A DNA stretch of 52,509 bases, taken from the NCBI GenBank assembly GCA_012974305.1, contig JAAXQN010000213.1, positions 1-52,509 of the forward strand. Direction: 5' to 3'. Positions 11,408-49,894 of the stretch are shown here, one piece after another. The notes below the pieces were generated by a model. The model was given only the letters and a program-made list of their open reading frames with translations. It did no database searches and was not told where the DNA came from. Each line of letters opens with the position of its first letter. The stretch's first letter is position 1. This stretch comes from Candidatus Methylomirabilis sp. (lineage in GTDB: Bacteria > Methylomirabilota > Methylomirabilia > Methylomirabilales > CSP1-5). The position numbers were made by a program, and so were the translations under genes.

Positions 11408-12088
11408 ATGCACATCACGGTCATCATTCCAGCTCTGGATGAAGAGGCGGCCATCGGTGCGGTGGTGCGGGACATCTCCCGAGACCTCGTTGAGGAGATT
11501 GTCGTCGTGGATAACGGAAGCACCGACCGCACGGCAGAGGTGGCACGAGCTGCCGGCGCCAGGGTGATTCACGAGCCAATGCGTGGCTACGGTGCGGCCT
11601 GTTTGGCCGGAGCAATGGCGGCGCAGGATGCCGACATCCTCGTCTTTCTCGATGGCGATAGAAGCGATGACCCCGCTGAAATGCCCGTCGTCTTGCGACC
11701 GATTCTGGATGGCCAGGCCGACCTGGTGGTTGGATCGCGAACGACTGGCGTCACCGAGAAGGGGGCCCTCACATCCCAACAGCGGTTTGGCAACCGGCTG
11801 GTGACGAGGATGGTGTGGCTCCTCTACGGTCTCACCTTGACCGACATCGGTCCCTTCCGGGCCATCAAAGGACCAGTCCTTTGGGACCTCGGGATGGAGC
11901 ACAAGACGTATGGATGGCCTGTGGAGATGATCGTCAAGGCGGCCAAGAAGGGATATCGAGTCGTGAACGTCCCAGTCAGTTGTCGCAAGAGAATCGGCCG
12001 GTCAAAGGTGGCAGGCACGCTGAAAGGCAGCCTCCTGGCCGGCTATCATCTGCTCTCCACCACTATGCGGTATGCCTGGAGGAGGTAA
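11408..12088 (+). CDS. GT2 glycosyltransferase, polyprenyl-phosphate sugar synthase-like (DPM1/Ppm1-type)
   Basis: 226 aa. 'VIIPALDEE', 'VVVDNGSTDRT' and 'LDGDRSDDP' (the DxD region) are present, and the protein is short and soluble like GT2 enzymes of this type. Confidence 0.8.
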   Translation: MHITVIIPALDEEAAIGAVVRDISRDLVEEIVVVDNGSTDRTAEVARAAGARVIHEPMRGYGAACLAGAMAAQDADILVFLDGDRSDDPAEMPVVLRPILDGQADLVVGSRTTGVTEKGALTSQQRFGNRLVTRMVWLLYGLTLTDIGPFRAIKGPVLWDLGMEHKTYGWPVEMIVKAAKKGYRVVNVPVSCRKRIGRSKVAGTLKGSLLAGYHLLSTTMRYAWRR

Positions 12089-32133: not shown

Positions 32134-32879
32134 GTGTCTCAGTTTTGCAGGGAGTATTTGCGGGGTGACTTACGCTCATGGATTGTAATGAAAACTCTCA
32201 AGAGTGATCCCCCGGACACGGTGTCAATTCCACGAATTTCTGTCATCATTCCGGCACGGAACGACGCCGCCGCCCTCGGCCAGACCCTTGACTACCTGGA
32301 TGGCCTCGTGAGGAACGACGCGGTCGAGGTCATCGTGGCAGCCTCCGGCGACCCTGGCGGCACGGAACGCGCTGTGGCGGGGCGGGCAAAGCTCCTCTGG
32401 CCCTCGGGGTCCACACGATCCACCCTGATGAATGCAGGTGCGGAAACCGCGCGCGGTGAAATTCTCTTCTTCCTCCATGCCGATTCCTTCCCGCCGGCGA
32501 GTGTTTTCGAGCTCATTGACCAGGCCCTGTCCAGCAATGACGTTGCTGGTGGCGCCTTCGAGCATCTCTTTGTGTCCGAGCCGCCCTGTTCCGCGAAATG
32601 GACGGGTACAAGGACCTTTGGGTCTTGGAAGATCTCGAATTCACCCAGCGCCTCAAGCGGGTTGGACGATCCATCCTGATCCCGGTGCCGGTGCTCACGT
32701 CTGGACGGCGCCTGCTCGCCCGCGGACCCTGGCGCACTTTTTGCTTCATTGTATGGTTGCTGTTTCTGCACACCATGCGGCTCGATACCCAGCGGCATGC
32801 CGAGCGCTGGCGTGGCCCGGGAGACAGTCCGCCGGGAAGCCCATGCCCCCGTGGTCGTCTGCAACAAGGAGTTTGCTGA
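32134..32879 (+). pseudogene. Frameshifted and internally shortened TIGR04283-like GT2 glycosyltransferase (third paralog)
   Basis: Frame 1 reads 'ISVIIPARNDA...LMNAGAETARGEILFFLHADSFPP...GGAFEHLF'. Homology continues only in another frame from about 32572: 'VRAALFREMDGYKDLWVLEDLEFTQRLKRVG...TSGRR'. About 30 aa found in the intact paralogs between 'GGxF' and 'FVR' are missing. Confidence 0.55.
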
Positions 32880-34287: not shown

Positions 34288-35691
34288 ATGACGCTGCTCT
34301 GGGTGGCCCTTGTCGGCTACGGGATATTGATGTATCTCGTCTCGCCCCGGGCCACCGACTCCAAAGCGTTCTACTGGGGATACGACGCCCAAGGGCGAAA
34401 GACCGGTTTCTGGTTGCTCACGTGCAGCACCTTTATCACCTGGATATTCGCCAAGTCGGTGACCAACGCTGCCAACCTGGGAGCAACGTACGGCATCGTG
34501 GGCGGCCTCGCCTATGCCACGTATTATCTCTCTATCCCGGTGGCGGGGATCGTTATCGTTTCGATCCGCAAACGCTGGGGCTCTCGGAGCCTCTCCGAGT
34601 TCCTCGTCAGCAAATACGGCCGAACCGCCGCCACGGCCTTCCTTCTCGTCGTCACCATTCGGCTCTTCAACGAGGTGTGGAGCAATACTGCCGTCGTGGG
34701 CTCCTACTTCGGGGGGAAAGGAACCTTTCCGTATTACGCCGCCGCCTTTGTCTTTACCGCCCTGACCCTCATTTACAGTCTCAAAGGGGGGCTCAGGAGC
34801 TCGATCATTACAGACATGCTGCAACTCGTGCTGGCCGGATTCTTTCTCTTCCTCCTCCTGTTCCACCTCTTCCCCCGGGTCGGACCGGGAGAACTCCTCC
34901 AGGCGGGCGAGTTTTCTTTTCGCGGAGGCCTCGATATCCTCCTGGTCGCTTTCCTCCAGATCTGGAGCTACCCCTTCCATGACCCGGTCCTCACAGACCG
35001 GGCTTTCATTGCGGACCGTCAAGCGACGGTTCCAGCCTTCTGGGCGGCGGGGATCGGCGGGATTCTGTTCATCCTCCTCTCCAGTCTGATCGGCATCTAC
35101 GCCTTTAAGGAGGGATTGGCCTTTACCGACGATGCGCCCCGGGTCGTGGCGGCGTCTTTCGGCCTCGGCATTCTCTTTGCGATGAACGTCATCATGCTCT
35201 GCTCTGCCGGCTCCACCCTCGACTCCACGTTCAGCTCTGTTTCCAAGGAAGCCGGAGTTGACCTGGCCGCGATCGGGTTCGACCGCTGGAGGGACCGTGT
35301 GGGGATTGGAAAGTTGGCCATGGTGGTCATCGCGCTCCTAGGGAACCTTCCTCTCTTTGCCGGGGCCTCGATCCTTCAGGCCACTACCATCAGCGGAACC
35401 ATGGTGATGGGGCTGGCGCCCATCTTCATTCTCCACTTCCTCCCGTCTGTCCCGCGCGCGTCCTTCCATTTCGCATTCTGGCCCGGACTGGGACTTGGCA
35501 TCCTGTACACCCTGGGGTGGGTCCCATCTGCCCTGGCGATCGGGAACGGCCGGTATGCTATGCTGCTGGGCGTGAACTTCTATGGGCTGCTTCTGTGCAC
35601 GGGCCTCTTTCTCGTCCCCTGGGCCTATGAACGCGTGGCCTATACGAAATTCGCTCGCCGCTTGGCCGCCGTGATGGAGAACCGACGTTGA
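34288..35691 (+). CDS. Sodium:solute symporter (SSS) family transporter
   Basis: 467 aa with about 13 TM segments. The N-terminal 'FYWG....G.W.L..S.FITWIFAKSVTNAANLG' pattern is present. Confidence 0.8.
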   Translation: MTLLWVALVGYGILMYLVSPRATDSKAFYWGYDAQGRKTGFWLLTCSTFITWIFAKSVTNAANLGATYGIVGGLAYATYYLSIPVAGIVIVSIRKRWGSRSLSEFLVSKYGRTAATAFLLVVTIRLFNEVWSNTAVVGSYFGGKGTFPYYAAAFVFTALTLIYSLKGGLRSSIITDMLQLVLAGFFLFLLLFHLFPRVGPGELLQAGEFSFRGGLDILLVAFLQIWSYPFHDPVLTDRAFIADRQATVPAFWAAGIGGILFILLSSLIGIYAFKEGLAFTDDAPRVVAASFGLGILFAMNVIMLCSAGSTLDSTFSSVSKEAGVDLAAIGFDRWRDRVGIGKLAMVVIALLGNLPLFAGASILQATTISGTMVMGLAPIFILHFLPSVPRASFHFAFWPGLGLGILYTLGWVPSALAIGNGRYAMLLGVNFYGLLLCTGLFLVPWAYERVAYTKFARRLAAVMENRR

Positions 35692-36542
35692 CCATCCCGA
35701 CCGCACCGCTTTTGGAATTGAGCACTCTCTGGATCCAGGTGACCGGGACATGGTGTAACCTGACCTGCACCCATTGTCTCAACAGCAGCGGTCCCCACAA
35801 TCCCTGGCTCAAAAGCTTGGACACAGATATGGTGATCCGGTCCATCAAGGAGGGAGCCGAACTCGGCATCAAAGAGATCTACTACACCGGAGGAGAGCCT
35901 TTCCTTCACAAAGATATGCTCCTTCTCACCGCCCACGCCCTCGAGGTGGCACCGACCACGATCCTGACAAACGGAACCCTGATTACAGAACAGGTTGCGG
36001 ACCATCTGGCGGCGTTGGCCCAAAACTCTCCCTACTCCCTCGAGATCCGGATCAGCATCGACGATGTGGATCCGGAAAAGAATGACCGAATCAGAGGAAA
36101 GGGGGCATTTTCGAAAGCCATCCGGGCGCTGCAGGTGCTTCACAGTCGCGGACTTCTCCCTATCGTCACTGCCACGGAAATCTTGAGGGATGAGCTGCCA
36201 GAAGGGAGCGGGATGTACGAGCAATTTCGGGACCTCCTCCTCTCGCTCGGCATCACCAAGCCTCGAATGAAGATCATGCCCGTTTTTTCCATTGGGCGGA
36301 TGGAAGGAGAGGGGGGGCCGCTGCTCACGCCGGAAATGCTTGACGGGTTCGACTATTCCCTCCTCCAGTGTTCGGAGACCCGCGTGGTGGCTGAAGGGGG
36401 GGTGTACGCCTGTCCCATCCTGGCCGGGCTGCCGCAGGCACGCCTTTCCGAGAAGAGCCTCAAGGAGGCATTCAAACCCTGCGACCTCTACCACACGGCG
36501 TGCGTGACCTGCTATGAGACAGGGATGACGTGCAAGAACTGA
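35688..36542 (+). CDS. Radical SAM protein with C-terminal Cys-rich domain, ArsS (TIGR04167)-like
   Basis: 'WCNLTCTHC' is a CX3CX2C motif. 'YYTGGEPFL' and 'DRIRGKGAFSKAIRALQVL' follow, and the C-terminus is 'CSETRVVAEGGVYACP...CDLYHTACVTCYETGMTC'. The TTG start overlaps the SSS stop as TTGA. Confidence 0.75.
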   Translation: MTIPTAPLLELSTLWIQVTGTWCNLTCTHCLNSSGPHNPWLKSLDTDMVIRSIKEGAELGIKEIYYTGGEPFLHKDMLLLTAHALEVAPTTILTNGTLITEQVADHLAALAQNSPYSLEIRISIDDVDPEKNDRIRGKGAFSKAIRALQVLHSRGLLPIVTATEILRDELPEGSGMYEQFRDLLLSLGITKPRMKIMPVFSIGRMEGEGGPLLTPEMLDGFDYSLLQCSETRVVAEGGVYACPILAGLPQARLSEKSLKEAFKPCDLYHTACVTCYETGMTCKN

Positions 36543-36545
36543 GAT

Positions 36546-36580
36546 GGTTCAGGGTTGAGAGTTGAGGGTTCAGGGTCACA
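36546..36580. repeat. Tandem heptanucleotide array (5 units, GGTTSAG)
   Basis: ggttcag ggttgag agttgag ggttcag ggtcaca, beginning 4 nt after the rSAM stop codon. Confidence 0.8.
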
Positions 36581-36636
36581 TAAGGCGTAAAGAACAAATC
36601 ATGAATCCCGACCGCTAACAAAACGTCTTGAATCTA

Positions 36637-36692
36637 TGAACCATGAACTCTGAACTATGAACTGTGAGCAGTGAACCATGAACCGTGAACCA
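36637..36692. repeat. Tandem heptanucleotide array (8 units, TGAACYN), inverted relative to 36546-36580
   Basis: tgaacca tgaactc tgaacta tgaactg tgagcag tgaacca tgaaccg tgaacca, with exact 7-nt phasing. It overlaps the phosphoesterase start codon at 36678. Confidence 0.8.
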
Positions 36693-37478
36693 AAGGAGTA
36701 CAGGCGGATTGCCGTCTGTGGGGGGATCTACAACAACTATCTCGCCCTCGAGGCCGCGCTGGAAGATATTCGGCGGCGAGAGGTCGAGGCCGTTTTTTGC
36801 CTCGGAGATATGGGGGCCTTTGGTCCACACCCGGATCGGGTCTTCCCCCTGCTGGGGGAGGGAAAGGTCCTGGCCATCCAGGGCAATTACGACCAGTCCC
36901 TCGCGACCGGCCTGGATAACTGTCATTGCGGCTACACTGACCCACGGGACAACTACTTCGCCCAACTGAGCTACGAGTACACCTTCCGAAAGACCTCGCA
37001 CGAAAACAAGGCGTGGCTTGGCAAGCTGGCGACGCATCGGCGTGTGAAACTCGGACAGTACCGCGTTCTCATGTGTCACGGCTCTCCGCGGCGGACCAAC
37101 GAGTTCCTGTGGGAGAGCACCTCGCCCAACTGCCTTCTGGAAAAGTTCTGTCGGGACTTCGAGACCGACATCCTCCTCTGCACCCACACCGGGATCAAAT
37201 GGCATCGGGCCCTCGACGGGTACGGCCACATCATTAACGTGGGGACCATTGGCCGACCCGAGAACGACGGTCAAGTGCATGTCTGGTACACTCTGCTTAC
37301 CGCTGGGGATGACCTCCAGGTGGAGTTTATCCCGGTGCGCTACGACCACGAAACGCTGGCGCGGGAGATGGAAAAAGAGGGTCTACCGTCGGAGTTCATC
37401 GAGACCATCCGGACCGGCTGGTGGACTACGTGCCTCGAAATCCTCCCGGCCAAGGAGCGAGCTCGCGGCAAATATTGA
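36678..37478 (+). CDS. Metallophosphoesterase-family protein with an atypical motif I
   Basis: 'LGDMGAFGP', 'QGNYD', 'MCHGSPR' and 'CTHTGIKW' match calcineurin-like phosphoesterase motifs II-V. Motif I reads 'CGGIYNN' instead of 'DxHG'. Confidence 0.8.
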   Translation: MNREPKEYRRIAVCGGIYNNYLALEAALEDIRRREVEAVFCLGDMGAFGPHPDRVFPLLGEGKVLAIQGNYDQSLATGLDNCHCGYTDPRDNYFAQLSYEYTFRKTSHENKAWLGKLATHRRVKLGQYRVLMCHGSPRRTNEFLWESTSPNCLLEKFCRDFETDILLCTHTGIKWHRALDGYGHIINVGTIGRPENDGQVHVWYTLLTAGDDLQVEFIPVRYDHETLAREMEKEGLPSEFIETIRTGWWTTCLEILPAKERARGKY

Positions 37479-37480
37479 GA

Positions 37481-37578
37481 GACCGTTGACCGTTCACCGA
37501 CGACCGACGACAGCTTGGAAGAGAACAACAGCAGAAAGAGGAAGGGTCTTGGCGGTCAACGGTCGTCGGACGTCGGTC
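37481..37578. repeat. Second pair of heptanucleotide arrays (GACCGTT/GACCGAC units and their complements)
   Basis: Left arm 37481-37511: gaccgtt gaccgtt caccgac gaccgac gac. Right arm 37551-37578: ggcggtc aacggtc gtcggac gtcggtc. The right-arm units are complements of the left-arm units but in the same order. Confidence 0.75.
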
Positions 37579-37599
37579 ATCTCCAGTGGTGATGCCGAG

Positions 37600-38339
37600 A
37601 TGAAGAGCACCCGTTGGGTAAGTAAATTCACGAACAGTGTACTCGTTCAGGTCTTCAAACATTTTCCGTGGTTGGCCGAGCGCTGGGCAAGAAGCCACCA
37701 GTTTATCGAAGGCAAGGGCATCCCCTGGACCCCCCTCGGCAAGCCTCTTCGAGAGTGCCGCATTGCAATGGTCACCACCGCGCCTTTCCCGCTGATGTGG
37801 ACAAAACCGACCTCACGATCACCCACAAGTACTACGATCATTCCGCGGCAGATAGCGACATCAACGTCGTCCTCCCCATCGACCGGCTCCAGGAACTCAG
37901 GGATGAAGGAGTGATCGGAAACATCACGTCCACCCTGTATAGCTTCATGGGCCACATCGACGGTCCGCACCTGAAGACCCTCATGGAGGAGACAGCGCCC
38001 GAGGTCGCGGAACTCCTGGTCCGGGACGGGGCCGAGGCCGTTTTTCTCACGCCCGCCTGAGGTCTGTGCAACCAGGCCGTGGGCCTGATGCAGCGGACGA
38101 TCGAGGCCAGGGGGATTCCCACCATAGGCATCACCCTCCAGAAAGAGATCACAAAGCAGGTCAAGCCCCCCCGGGCCCTCTACCTTCGTTATCCCTTTGG
38201 CCATCCGCTCGGGGAGGCTTTTCAGGTTAAGCAGCAGCGGACCATTTTGCTCGAGACGCTCAAGGGTCTGGAGACCATCAAGGACCCAGGGACTATTCTG
38301 GAACCAGGCTATGTCTGGCGACGGCACCGCTTTGACTGA
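37600..38339 (+). pseudogene. GrdB-family (glycine/sarcosine/betaine reductase selenoprotein B-like) gene with in-frame UGA (candidate Sec) and an apparent frameshift near 37780-37790
   Basis: Frame 1 reads 'GIPWTPLGKPLRECRIAMVTTA'. Frame 0 continues 'AFPADVDKTDLTITHKYYDHSAADSDINVVLPIDRLQELRDEGVIG...AVFLTPA-[TGA 38058-38060]-GLCNQAVGLMQRTIEARGIPTIGITL...PPRALYLRYPFGHPLG'. The track ORFs 37668-38060 and 38079-38339 share a frame. Confidence 0.6.
38073..38087 (+). promoter_or_regulatory. SECIS-like hairpin downstream of UGA 38058
   Basis: CAGGCC-GUG-GGCCUG is a perfect 6-bp stem that can be extended by flanking GCA/UGC pairing. The loop GUG lies at +19 to +21 from the UGA. Confidence 0.4.
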
Positions 38340-38452
38340 AGTGGTAGCGGGATTGACTTATGAACCTACTGGCCTAGTATTAAGATGGTACTGGAACCTG
38401 ATTGTCCTCACCTCTCACAGTTCATCTGCGATGTTTGTTAGGAGTTTAGCCG

Positions 38453-49705: not shown

Positions 49706-49894
49706 ACTGACGACCCAACGAACGTGCTGCCAGTTTTCTCACACGATGCTTATCAGTGTGGCGTCGGGGTGCCCAAATGGGAGAAATTGGTCTGGAGCTT
49801 GCAAAACATCCCGGGAGGAGCCCTGACTGGTGTTCAGCGGGGGCGCAACCGTTCATGAGGACTTGCCACGATGACCAATCCAGACAATAAAGAG

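Follow-up and report, generated by a model that had tools for sequence, protein, structure and literature searches.

A radical SAM, metallophosphoesterase and selenoprotein gene cluster of Methylomirabilota as a candidate head module of an ArsS-type organo-metalloid system

In bacteria, carbon−arsenic bonds are made by the methyltransferase ArsM and by the radical S-adenosylmethionine (SAM) enzymes ArsS and ArsL (bioRxiv 10.1101/2024.02.01.577332; PMC13598754). ArsS adenosylates dimethylarsenite, DMAs(III), to the product 5′-deoxy-5′-dimethylarsinoyl-adenosine (DDMAA) (PMC13598754), and the RCCLKC tail of ArsL has been shown to bind As(III) (bioRxiv 10.1101/2024.02.01.577332). Here we analyze a 52,509-nucleotide stretch of DNA from Candidatus Methylomirabilis sp. 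(assembly GCA_012974305.1, contig JAAXQN010000213.1; hereafter the window), in which four consecutive genes on the plus strand, filling 34.2−38.4 kb, encode a transporter resembling the sodium:solute symporters (SSS), a radical SAM protein, a protein of the metallophosphoesterase fold, and a selenoprotein related to GrdB and PrdB. As far as we know, the arsenosugar steps that follow ArsS have not been assigned, nor has the origin of arsenolipids. We give somewhat better than even weight to the reading that this cluster serves an ArsS-type organo-metalloid system, most probably an organoarsenical one, as a head module that either replaces or supplements ArsS in Methylomirabilota and neighboring phyla.

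The transporter gene (34288−35691, +) codes for 467 amino acids and is followed by the gene for the 284-residue radical SAM protein (35688−36542, +), whose TTG start overlaps the TGA stop of the symporter gene in the letters TTGA. We use the name rSAM′ for this protein and its family, and MPE for the 266-residue metallophosphoesterase-like protein encoded next (36678−37478, +). The fourth gene (37600−38339, +), for the GrdB/PrdB-like selenoprotein, is disrupted in the window, as judged by three-frame translation, DNA alignment, and comparison with intact orthologues. A first-pass annotation, made from the DNA letters, had located these genes largely correctly, the TTGA overlap included. It had also assigned to the window all four families of the ArsS-type pathway, namely the radical SAM enzyme TIGR04167, an associated phosphoesterase, TIGR04282 and TIGR04283. 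Here the labels of the two central genes proved wrong: the radical SAM protein fails TIGR04167, and the phosphoesterase fits no curated model.

The motifs that had drawn attention to the radical SAM gene are indeed present: CNLTCTHC, GGEP, DRIRGKGAFSKAIRAL, and a C-terminal C272-x2-C275-x6-C282, the Cys residues being invariant in 30 homologues. The ArsS assignment built on them did not survive the hidden Markov model search, in which rSAM′ scores 59.1 bits on TIGR04167 against a cutoff of 300, only residues 10−155 (the radical SAM core) are matched, and nine other radical SAM families outscore TIGR04167. The best NCBIfam match is the Rv1681 family, at 108 bits against a cutoff of 380. A Pfam scan of rSAM′ returns PF04055 (82.9 bits) and PF13353 only, so that DUF3641 (PF12345) is absent, and the Pfam SPASM model PF13186 gives no match on the protein. 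An alignment of rSAM′ with a genuine ArsS from its own phylum gives 29% identity for 137 N-terminal residues, and the C-terminal halves cannot be aligned. We consider it highly improbable that rSAM′ is a divergent ArsS ortholog catalyzing the same 5′-deoxyadenosyl transfer to DMAs(III). Membership in the same superfamily, the N-terminal identity, similar genomic company, and a Cys-rich extreme C-terminus in both proteins would suit such an ortholog, whereas the score of 59 bits (true ArsS proteins of the same phylum reach 391−437), the missing DUF3641, the nine better-scoring families, and the unalignable C-terminal halves all count against it. Moreover, both proteins are encoded side by side in one locus described below (L008), which argues for distinct roles.

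Judged from its sequence, rSAM′ is not ArsS and belongs instead to a small uncurated family. We call the family small because, of 1.84 billion cluster representatives searched with its profile, only 126 clusters match at E ≤ 1e-30. A literature search covering the gene combination, TIGR04282, TIGR04283, and DUF2064 found no description of it. The genome-collection scan also returned a set of loci (L018−L051) that encode an unrelated radical SAM family of ∼360−385 amino acids (some open reading frame calls are longer), which shares the peptide GEGEPFLHKDM by chance; these proteins are neither ArsS nor members of the rSAM′ family, and the loci were dropped.

Across the 30 homologues of rSAM′, the CX3CX2C motif (C23/C27/C30) is invariant, as are GGEPF, LTNG, and NDxxRG; the CX3CX2C motif is a feature of the superfamily and is not specific to ArsS. 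Five Cys residues in the C-terminal part are likewise invariant, arranged as C228-x13-C242 and C272-x2-C275-x6-C282-K-N. The C-terminus reads ACVTCYETGMTCKN, and the RCCLKC motif of ArsL is absent from it. The tail of ArsS has the form CxxCx7(C/U), and the tails of ArsL and ArsS provide Cys/Sec precedents (Sec, selenocysteine) for a possible metalloid-binding thiol tail in rSAM′. The AlphaFold model of rSAM′ (predicted local distance difference test, pLDDT, 73.8) is closest to the structures of SkfB, anSME, MoaA, PqqE, and BtrN, with template modeling (TM) scores of 0.46−0.60, and the C228-x13-C242...C272-x2-C275 pattern, together with these structural neighbors, is compatible with a twitch domain. 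Two readings of the Cys pattern may be offered: C228, C242, C272, and C275 could hold a BtrN-like twitch auxiliary [4Fe-4S] cluster, or a thiol tail could bind the metalloid. Sequence and fold searches of the Protein Data Bank (PDB) for a function placed rSAM′ only generically, among twitch/SPASM enzymes.

For the neighboring MPE, the metallophosphoesterase fold that had been proposed stands (PF12850, 41.7 bits), and its assignment to the phosphoesterase family of the ArsS pathway does not. MPE belongs to no curated NCBIfam family, the sole match being a weak one to PRK09453 (15.9 bits), and no match to TIGR04168 was obtained from a library that we assume to hold this model since its sibling TIGR04169 is present. 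The MPE orthologues of three further loci (L052, L055, and L013) likewise match no curated NCBIfam family. The AlphaFold model (pLDDT 82) is best matched by the SapH Ap4A hydrolase (3qfm, TM 0.73−0.79) and by the Pyrococcus structures 1nnw and 2gju; sequence and fold searches of the PDB for a function placed MPE only among such SapH/PF1291-type proteins. The metal site is degenerate: among the five motifs that bind metal in the superfamily (DxH, GD, GNH[DE], H, and GHxH), motif I (DxH) has given way to an invariant GGxYxN, and GNHD to GNYD. Cys 41, 82, 84, and 168 are invariant and directly adjoin the remaining active-site motifs, and Cys 252 is at least nearly invariant, the invariant motifs being C41-LGD, C82-x-C84-GYTDPRDN, and C168-THTG-KWHR. 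From sequence position alone, we infer that the cysteines of MPE may make up a new site, for a metal or a metalloid, that stands in for one of the two metals bound canonically.

The conservation of this neighborhood was assessed at the level of contigs, on loci from one genome-collection scan and ten contig look-ups. In 18 distinct loci, which come from Methylomirabilota, Rokubacteria, Acidobacteriota, and Entotheonellia, the genes for rSAM′ and MPE stand next to each other (L053 duplicates L052); a Binatia locus, L017, is additional to these 18 and holds a decayed remnant of the pair. A symporter gene lies directly upstream of rSAM′ only in nine Methylomirabilota loci, and the selenoprotein gene is present in fourteen loci. 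The first-pass annotation had taken symporter, radical SAM protein, and phosphoesterase together as a triad; this triad is limited to the nine Methylomirabilota loci, whereas the rSAM′−MPE pair, which is the conserved core, is found more widely. In the window, the frames for transporter, rSAM′, and MPE are intact, 79−88% identical to their orthologues, and retain all invariant residues.

The pair keeps recurrent company. Within a few kilobases of it, 15 of the 18 loci carry some of the following genes: a DedA/VTT protein, a MerA-like flavoprotein, a TIGR04283 transferase, and a TIGR04282-like protein (the loci named as linked are L001, L005−L009, L011, L012, L014, L052, L057, L059−L061, L063, and the window). 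The flavoprotein of the linked loci is a disulfide reductase of ∼510 amino acids dependent on flavin adenine dinucleotide (NF004991, 805 bits), and the TIGR04283 transferases score 270.5 and 271.9 bits against a cutoff of 182. Gene order varies from SSS / rSAM′ / MPE / Sec-protein / VTT / flavoprotein / glycosyltransferase (GT) in L057 to VTT / GT / rSAM′ / MPE in L059 and rSAM′ / MPE / GT ... TIGR04282-like gene in L014. VTT and flavoprotein genes stand upstream of the pair in L011, and L062 has MPE / VTT / DUF3047 / GT2 without rSAM′. Because the linkage outlasts rearrangement across phyla, we take it to reflect a shared function. The pair is differently flanked in L013, from an Acidobacteriota metagenome-assembled genome (MAG), where an 893-residue acyl-CoA-synthetase fusion (3311−5992) has its stop overlapping the rSAM′ start and a patatin-like phospholipase gene (7940−8773) occupies the other flank.

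Much of this company is also that of genuine ArsS. Ca. M. lanthanidiphila and a second MAG carry a run of VTT / ArsM-like methyltransferase / true ArsS / (PiT-type transporter) / the same selenoprotein, and the Ca. Methylomirabilis ArsS cluster goes on with VTT / DUF3047 / TIGR04283 / MerA-like / two DUF3179 / MerR / P-type ATPase. The ArsS of L064 scores 436.6 bits on TIGR04167 against 300, DUF3641 (PF12345) is found on the ArsS proteins of L064−L066, and the TIGR04283 protein of the Ca. Methylomirabilis cluster scores 276 bits against 182. Selenoproteins of ArsS-type and rSAM′-type loci are 55−76% identical to one another; because this range matches that within the rSAM′ type (56−84%), the module is a single orthologous one. 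In L064, L065, and L066, the selenoprotein, DedA, DUF3047, MerA-like, two DUF3179, MerR, and P-type ATPase genes form a fixed block downstream of the ArsM-like/ArsS genes, and this extended block is not mirrored in the curated family names.

The two types of cluster meet in L008, a locus of a Methylomirabilota MAG, where a single run reads DUF3179 / SSS / rSAM′ / MPE / selenoprotein / TIGR04169 / Sec-ArsS / VTT / flavoprotein / TIGR04283. Here ArsS scores 390.7 bits against 300, and the TIGR04169 “arsenosugar biosynthesis-associated peroxidase-like protein” 183.6 against 120. The latter (8488−8859), encoded upstream of ArsS, is AhpD-like and has a CPYC motif. The L008 ArsS gene (8861−9961) ends ...CTAGSGST-TGA where the Ca. 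Methylomirabilis protein ends ...CTAGTGSSC. The L008 protein is of the selenocysteine form, and the L008 cluster would encode two selenoproteins. A strict replacement of ArsM−ArsS by SSS−rSAM′−MPE was considered and rejected, as L008 carries both in one cluster. On these gene orders, rSAM′−MPE is a module that can be placed before a shared core, alone or together with ArsS.

A second tie to arsenic comes from gene fusions. Two proteins, P0375 and P0457, are rSAM′−methyltransferase fusions, and a third, P0501, has the reverse domain order. The best curated match of their methyltransferase domains is arsenite methyltransferase (237, 193, and 188 bits for P0375, P0457, and P0501, respectively), followed by the arsinothricin and arsenosugar ArsM models. 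These domains carry the cysteine motifs CC, YGCGSP, SNCVINL, and EC(I/L)xGA, which match the cysteines with which ArsM binds As(III). In the radical SAM halves, the alignment spans the whole rSAM′ profile and the hallmark residues are kept, among them C228, C242, and the Cys tail at the C-terminus. Fusion partners are not confined to ArsM-like methyltransferases: the rSAM′ members P0364 and P0389 have an N-terminal flavoprotein domain of ∼370−430 amino acids (Pyr_redox_3/Lys-Orn-oxygenase-like).

The fusions bear directly on the idea that rSAM′ is an unrelated twitch/SPASM maturase, acting on a peptide or cofactor, whose closeness to arsenic genes is a coincidence in a few related lineages. 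We hold this to be improbable. Its best sequence and structure matches are to SkfB, anSME, MoaA, PqqE, and MftC-like proteins, and a twitch domain would account for the C-x13-C ... C-x2-C pattern; yet no gene for a precursor peptide or a cofactor adjoins the pair, the linkage holds across several phyla despite changed gene orders, and fusions to ArsM-like domains cannot be a coincidence of neighborhood.

The first-pass annotation had rightly expected a GrdB-like selenoprotein gene after that for the phosphoesterase, but the gene starts with the ATG at 37600 (MKSTRWVSKF...MVTTA), in another frame, and not at 37668. It continues in a different frame (AFPADVDKTD...) and ends at 38339. DNA alignment with L001, L002, and L005 reveals a 67-nucleotide deletion between 37778 and 37779, which takes out 22 residues (GVHLKSQPPFNMEDPDGDxxFR) and shifts the frame. 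The deleted residues are present in all nine translated orthologues. The closest available relative, P0246, is intact and shows 98% identity across the 61 N-terminal residues used for comparison. Because the orthologues and P0246 are intact, the defect is specific to the window sequence; it may be either a pseudogene or an assembly error.

Downstream of the deletion, an in-frame TGA (38058−38060, +) is read as selenocysteine in LTPA-U-GLCNQ, a U-x-x-C motif. Its position is identical in the window and in 11 loci (nine translated orthologues, L052, and L057), with the consensus LTP[AT]-U-GLC[NH]Q, and ∼90 conserved residues follow it in the nine translated orthologues. A hairpin resembling a selenocysteine insertion sequence (SECIS), CAGGCC-GUG-GGCCUG (38073−38087, +), was found with RNAalifold on 12 orthologues and starts 15 nucleotides after the U of the UGA; in its 6-bp stem, two pairs are kept via double changes (6 cells in the 12 sequences) and none is broken. 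We read the gene as encoding a real selenoprotein. In the database, 119 of its 120 best homologues end at ∼172 amino acids, that is, at the TGA. The sole full-length homologue among the top matches, P0276, has Trp at the Sec position (LLTPGWGICNQ), which is probably TGA translated under another genetic code and not a true Trp variant. The window fragment scores 41.1 bits on PF07355 against 22. An intact orthologue barely passes TIGR01918 (65.6 against 65.45 bits) and fails the PrdB equivalog TIGR04483 (187.7 against 300). None of the loci examined contains genes for the partners PrdA/GrdE, GrdA, or GrdC.

The deletion raises a considerable chance, somewhat short of even, that the window cluster is a decaying and nonfunctional remnant. 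The lesion is missing from the three DNA-aligned loci and from P0246, with the 22 residues kept in 9/9 orthologues, a TIGR04283-like gene upstream is also frameshifted, and no DedA or flavoprotein gene adjoins the cluster. The intact and well-conserved frames of the transporter, rSAM′, and MPE with their invariant residues speak for a working copy, and one isolated deletion may have arisen in assembly. We note that decay would concern the state of the window copy, not the nature of the system, and is compatible with a head module of an ArsS-type system.

An undescribed variant of the radical SAM/selenodomain (arsenosugar) pathway was the central proposal of the first-pass annotation, and in that general form it is backed by the linkage of the pair, the shared selenoprotein module, L008, and the ArsM-like fusions. 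If the cluster is a head module of this kind, the SSS-like transporter would supply the substrate, and rSAM′ would direct a SAM-derived radical at a thiophilic metalloid compound such as methylated arsenite. By analogy, the chemistry could be a 5′-deoxyadenosyl transfer as in ArsS or a 3-amino-3-carboxypropyl transfer as in ArsL, with the substrate bound either to the Cys tail at the C-terminus or to an auxiliary Fe−S cluster. MPE, with its SapH-like nucleotide-hydrolase fold, may bind the metalloid or process a nucleoside or phosphoester product. The U-x-x-C selenoprotein, recycled by the MerA-like flavoprotein, could keep the metalloid reduced; the transporter and DedA would move substrate or product, and the transferases would add a sugar or aglycone. 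A bolder version, which we regard as tentative and rather unlikely, is that rSAM′ joins ArsS and ArsL as a third class of radical SAM enzyme directed at metalloids, with a mechanism of its own. It would work with MPE as a former phosphoesterase in which a cysteine site has taken the place of the dimetal site, and with the GrdB-like selenoprotein as dedicated reductant. Such an enzyme would form or remodel a C−As (or other metalloid) bond on the way to an organoarsenical without an assigned gene, possibly a lipid-soluble one.

Several observations weigh against a head module for an organoarsenical. Most rSAM′-type loci have no ArsM or ArsS nearby in the contigs examined, so that the substrate need not be arsenic, and the TIGR04282 and TIGR04283 transferases are called “arsenosugar biosynthesis” proteins by association only. 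The ArsM-like domains of all three fusions fall below the curated cutoff of 263 bits. Three loci (L013, L055, and L058) carry the pair without any linked module gene, and the lipid-gene flanks of L013 hint at a lipid substrate in that lineage. A twitch auxiliary cluster on C228, C242, C272, and C275 would fit the sequence and make an As-binding tail unnecessary. The MPE family is much larger than the rSAM′ family (>7,600 matches against ∼1,400 at E ≤ 1e-5) and therefore has a wider role. Finally, the selenoprotein gene of the window is itself disrupted, so this copy may be decaying.

Some of the same facts would suit a system devoted to another element (selenium, tellurium, or antimony) or to a metalloid-free, lipid-linked glycoconjugate, in which the arsenic tie belongs to the ArsS-containing subtype only. 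We judge this unlikely. The selenoprotein, DedA, and MerA-like flavoprotein are generic parts for handling redox or chalcogen chemistry, and Methylomirabilota are exceptionally rich in selenoproteins (PMC13188914). The scarcity of ArsM and ArsS around most rSAM′ genes, the acyl-CoA-synthetase fusion and patatin lipase of L013, and the names of the transferases fit as well. Against it stand three independent fusions of rSAM′ to ArsM-like domains with an ArsM-type Cys pattern, the true ArsS and TIGR04169 proteins resident in the same cluster in L008, and the PiT (phosphate/arsenate-type) transporters of sister clusters. We retain, with the reserve stated at the outset, the ArsS-type head module as the preferred reading.

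At the 5′ end of the window cluster, the label of sodium:solute symporter holds in part. The transporter passes PF00474 (34.5 bits against 22.8), but the match is confined to residues 36−201, the N-terminal third, and TIGR00813 is scored at 38.7 bits against 184; the protein is a putative and divergent member of the family, and its weak PDB match is SGLT1. The 400-nucleotide leader upstream of the symporter gene contains a small open reading frame, a hairpin, and a promoter-like site; no riboswitch was found in it, with no Rfam match at gathering or E ≤ 1. The promoter-like site from a consensus scan, TTGTCT-17-TATAGT with TG before the −10 (34236−34264, +), lies 24 nucleotides upstream of the symporter start. 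The block is kept in L001 and L005 and partly in L004, which is weak evidence for a promoter role. The small frame (34008−34076, +), which comes after a tetratricopeptide repeat gene and before the promoter-like site that precedes the symporter operon, has a good ribosome-binding site and codes for the 22-residue hydrophobic peptide MLEAILGIALVLGLVLLQSKYG. It is kept in L001, L004, and L005, every copy ending K(Y/H)G-stop with a hairpin after it, and the peptide may serve as a leader or as a small subunit in the membrane.

The transferase genes that had been listed for the rest of the window were borne out. The TIGR04282-family (DUF2064, CofC-like) gene spans 25732−26415 (+) and scores 178.7 bits against 134. 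Two intact TIGR04283-family glycosyltransferase genes pass the cutoff of 182 bits: one 4.3 kb downstream of the cluster (42692−43384, +; 256.6 bits), whose ortholog lies directly 3′ of the cluster in L007, L009, L052, and L057, and a second at 49871−50590 (+; 241.7 bits). The decayed copy (∼32188−32830, +) has a frameshift near 32560 and lacks ∼30 residues; tblastn recovered it as a pair of segments in separate frames, with ∼40% identity to the intact copy, and three-frame translation agrees. Overlapping the stop of the TIGR04282 gene is a gene for a Nudix hydrolase (26412−26963, +; NudE-like ADP-compound hydrolase, 75.9 bits; PF00293, 65 bits). An enzyme that hydrolyzes nucleotide diphosphates would be in keeping with adenosyl or nucleotide-sugar intermediates in the pathway. 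From this TIGR04282−Nudix pair to the DegP gene, L001 and the window are collinear. Between the TIGR04282 gene and the cluster sit genes for a 572-residue protein with a SagB-type (nitroreductase-like) dehydrogenase domain (27603−29321, −) and for MsrB (29384−30019, −). The segment from the peptidyl-prolyl isomerase gene to MsrB looks like an insertion because it is missing in the collinear L001.

Downstream, genes for a heavy-metal-type response regulator (38453−39124, +; TIGR01387, 280.6 against 279.2 bits) and sensor kinase (39121−40533, +; TIGR01386, 289.4 against 292.55 bits) follow the cluster and, with a DegP protease gene, separate it from the 42692−43384 transferase. A separate promoter-like site lies at 38353−38380. 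The two-component system (38453−40533), which occupies the same position only in L001 and L002, is a neighbor that may or may not belong to the head module. A tblastn search of the window found no ArsM-like methyltransferase, ArsS, or MerA-like flavoprotein. A second window cluster (8755−14114, +) comprises genes for a DUF3179-like protein, a DedA/VTT protein, and a CmoM/UbiG-like SAM methyltransferase, continuing with an AglJ-like GT2 and radical SAM/SPASM proteins at 12072−13085 and 13089−14114. Its DUF3179-like protein is 61% identical to the DUF3179 protein beside ArsS clusters; DUF3179 and DedA are what it has in common with ArsS-type neighborhoods, and it is otherwise different.

These results point to rSAM′ as a small and well-delimited radical SAM family whose Rosetta-stone fusions to ArsM-like domains make it a candidate for new arsenic radical chemistry. 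The GrdB/PrdB-like selenoprotein, DedA, and the MerA-like flavoprotein emerge as regular parts of ArsS-type clusters in NC10 bacteria, and the gene set widened in this way suggests that arsenic metabolism includes a redox step dependent on selenium. MPE adds a metallophosphoesterase fold in which canonical metal ligands are swapped for invariant cysteines, and the automatic “arsenosugar” labels on TIGR04282 and TIGR04283 span more than one kind of head enzyme.

Among described systems, the twitch/SPASM enzymes BtrN, SkfB, MoaA, anSME, and PqqE share with rSAM′ the closest structures and a C-x13-C hairpin followed by C-x2-C; rSAM′ differs in giving no Pfam SPASM match, in having five C-terminal Cys only, and in lacking partners of the peptide or aminoglycoside type. 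The Rv1681 (MoeX) family, NF049973, is the best curated model for rSAM′ and its relatives (89−120 bits), but the match is partial, covering the radical SAM core to residue 203 of 284, far below the cutoff of 380, and the C-terminal domain is unmatched. To our knowledge, the function of Rv1681 is not established. MPE has the fold and length of the Ap4A hydrolase/phosphodiesterase SapH (Spr1479) and of Pyrococcus PF1291/PH1004 (TM 0.72−0.79); Pyrococcus 1nnw is found with MPE by phmmer at E 5e-16, and the Pyrococcus proteins likewise lack DxH, whereas the three Cys-bearing motifs of MPE and its Cys252 are absent from these structures. With GrdB and PrdB of the glycine and ᴅ-proline reductases, the selenoprotein shares PF07355, a PrdB-like length, Sec in U-x-x-C, and a SECIS-like hairpin after the UGA. 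It differs in scoring below the PrdB equivalog cutoff, in lacking the pyruvoyl partner PrdA/GrdE as well as GrdA and GrdC in its vicinity, and in sitting in a metalloid-type cluster of a nonfermenting phylum.

ArsL (NF040542, arsinothricin biosynthesis) resembles rSAM′ as a CX3CX2C enzyme with three Cys at the extreme C-terminus and a tie to ArsM; the rSAM′ tail is C-x2-C-x6-C-K-N in place of RCCLKC, the gene context differs, and the ArsL model is not among the best 25 NCBIfam matches of rSAM′. The ArsS gene set (TIGR04167, TIGR04168, TIGR04169, TIGR04282, TIGR04283) is likewise among the close systems. Like the present system, it pairs a radical SAM protein with a partner of the metallophosphoesterase superfamily, is linked to TIGR04283 and TIGR04282, shares the selenoprotein/DedA/flavoprotein module and a Cys-rich extreme C-terminus, and is associated with an ArsM-like methyltransferase, in the rSAM′ family by fusion. 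The differences are these: rSAM′ fails the ArsS model, is without DUF3641, and has an unrelated C-terminal half; MPE fits no curated model; and selenium enters through a separate GrdB-like protein instead of through Sec within the tail of the radical SAM protein. The first gene of the cluster is for a symporter and not for ArsM, and rSAM′ can coexist with ArsS, as it does in L008.

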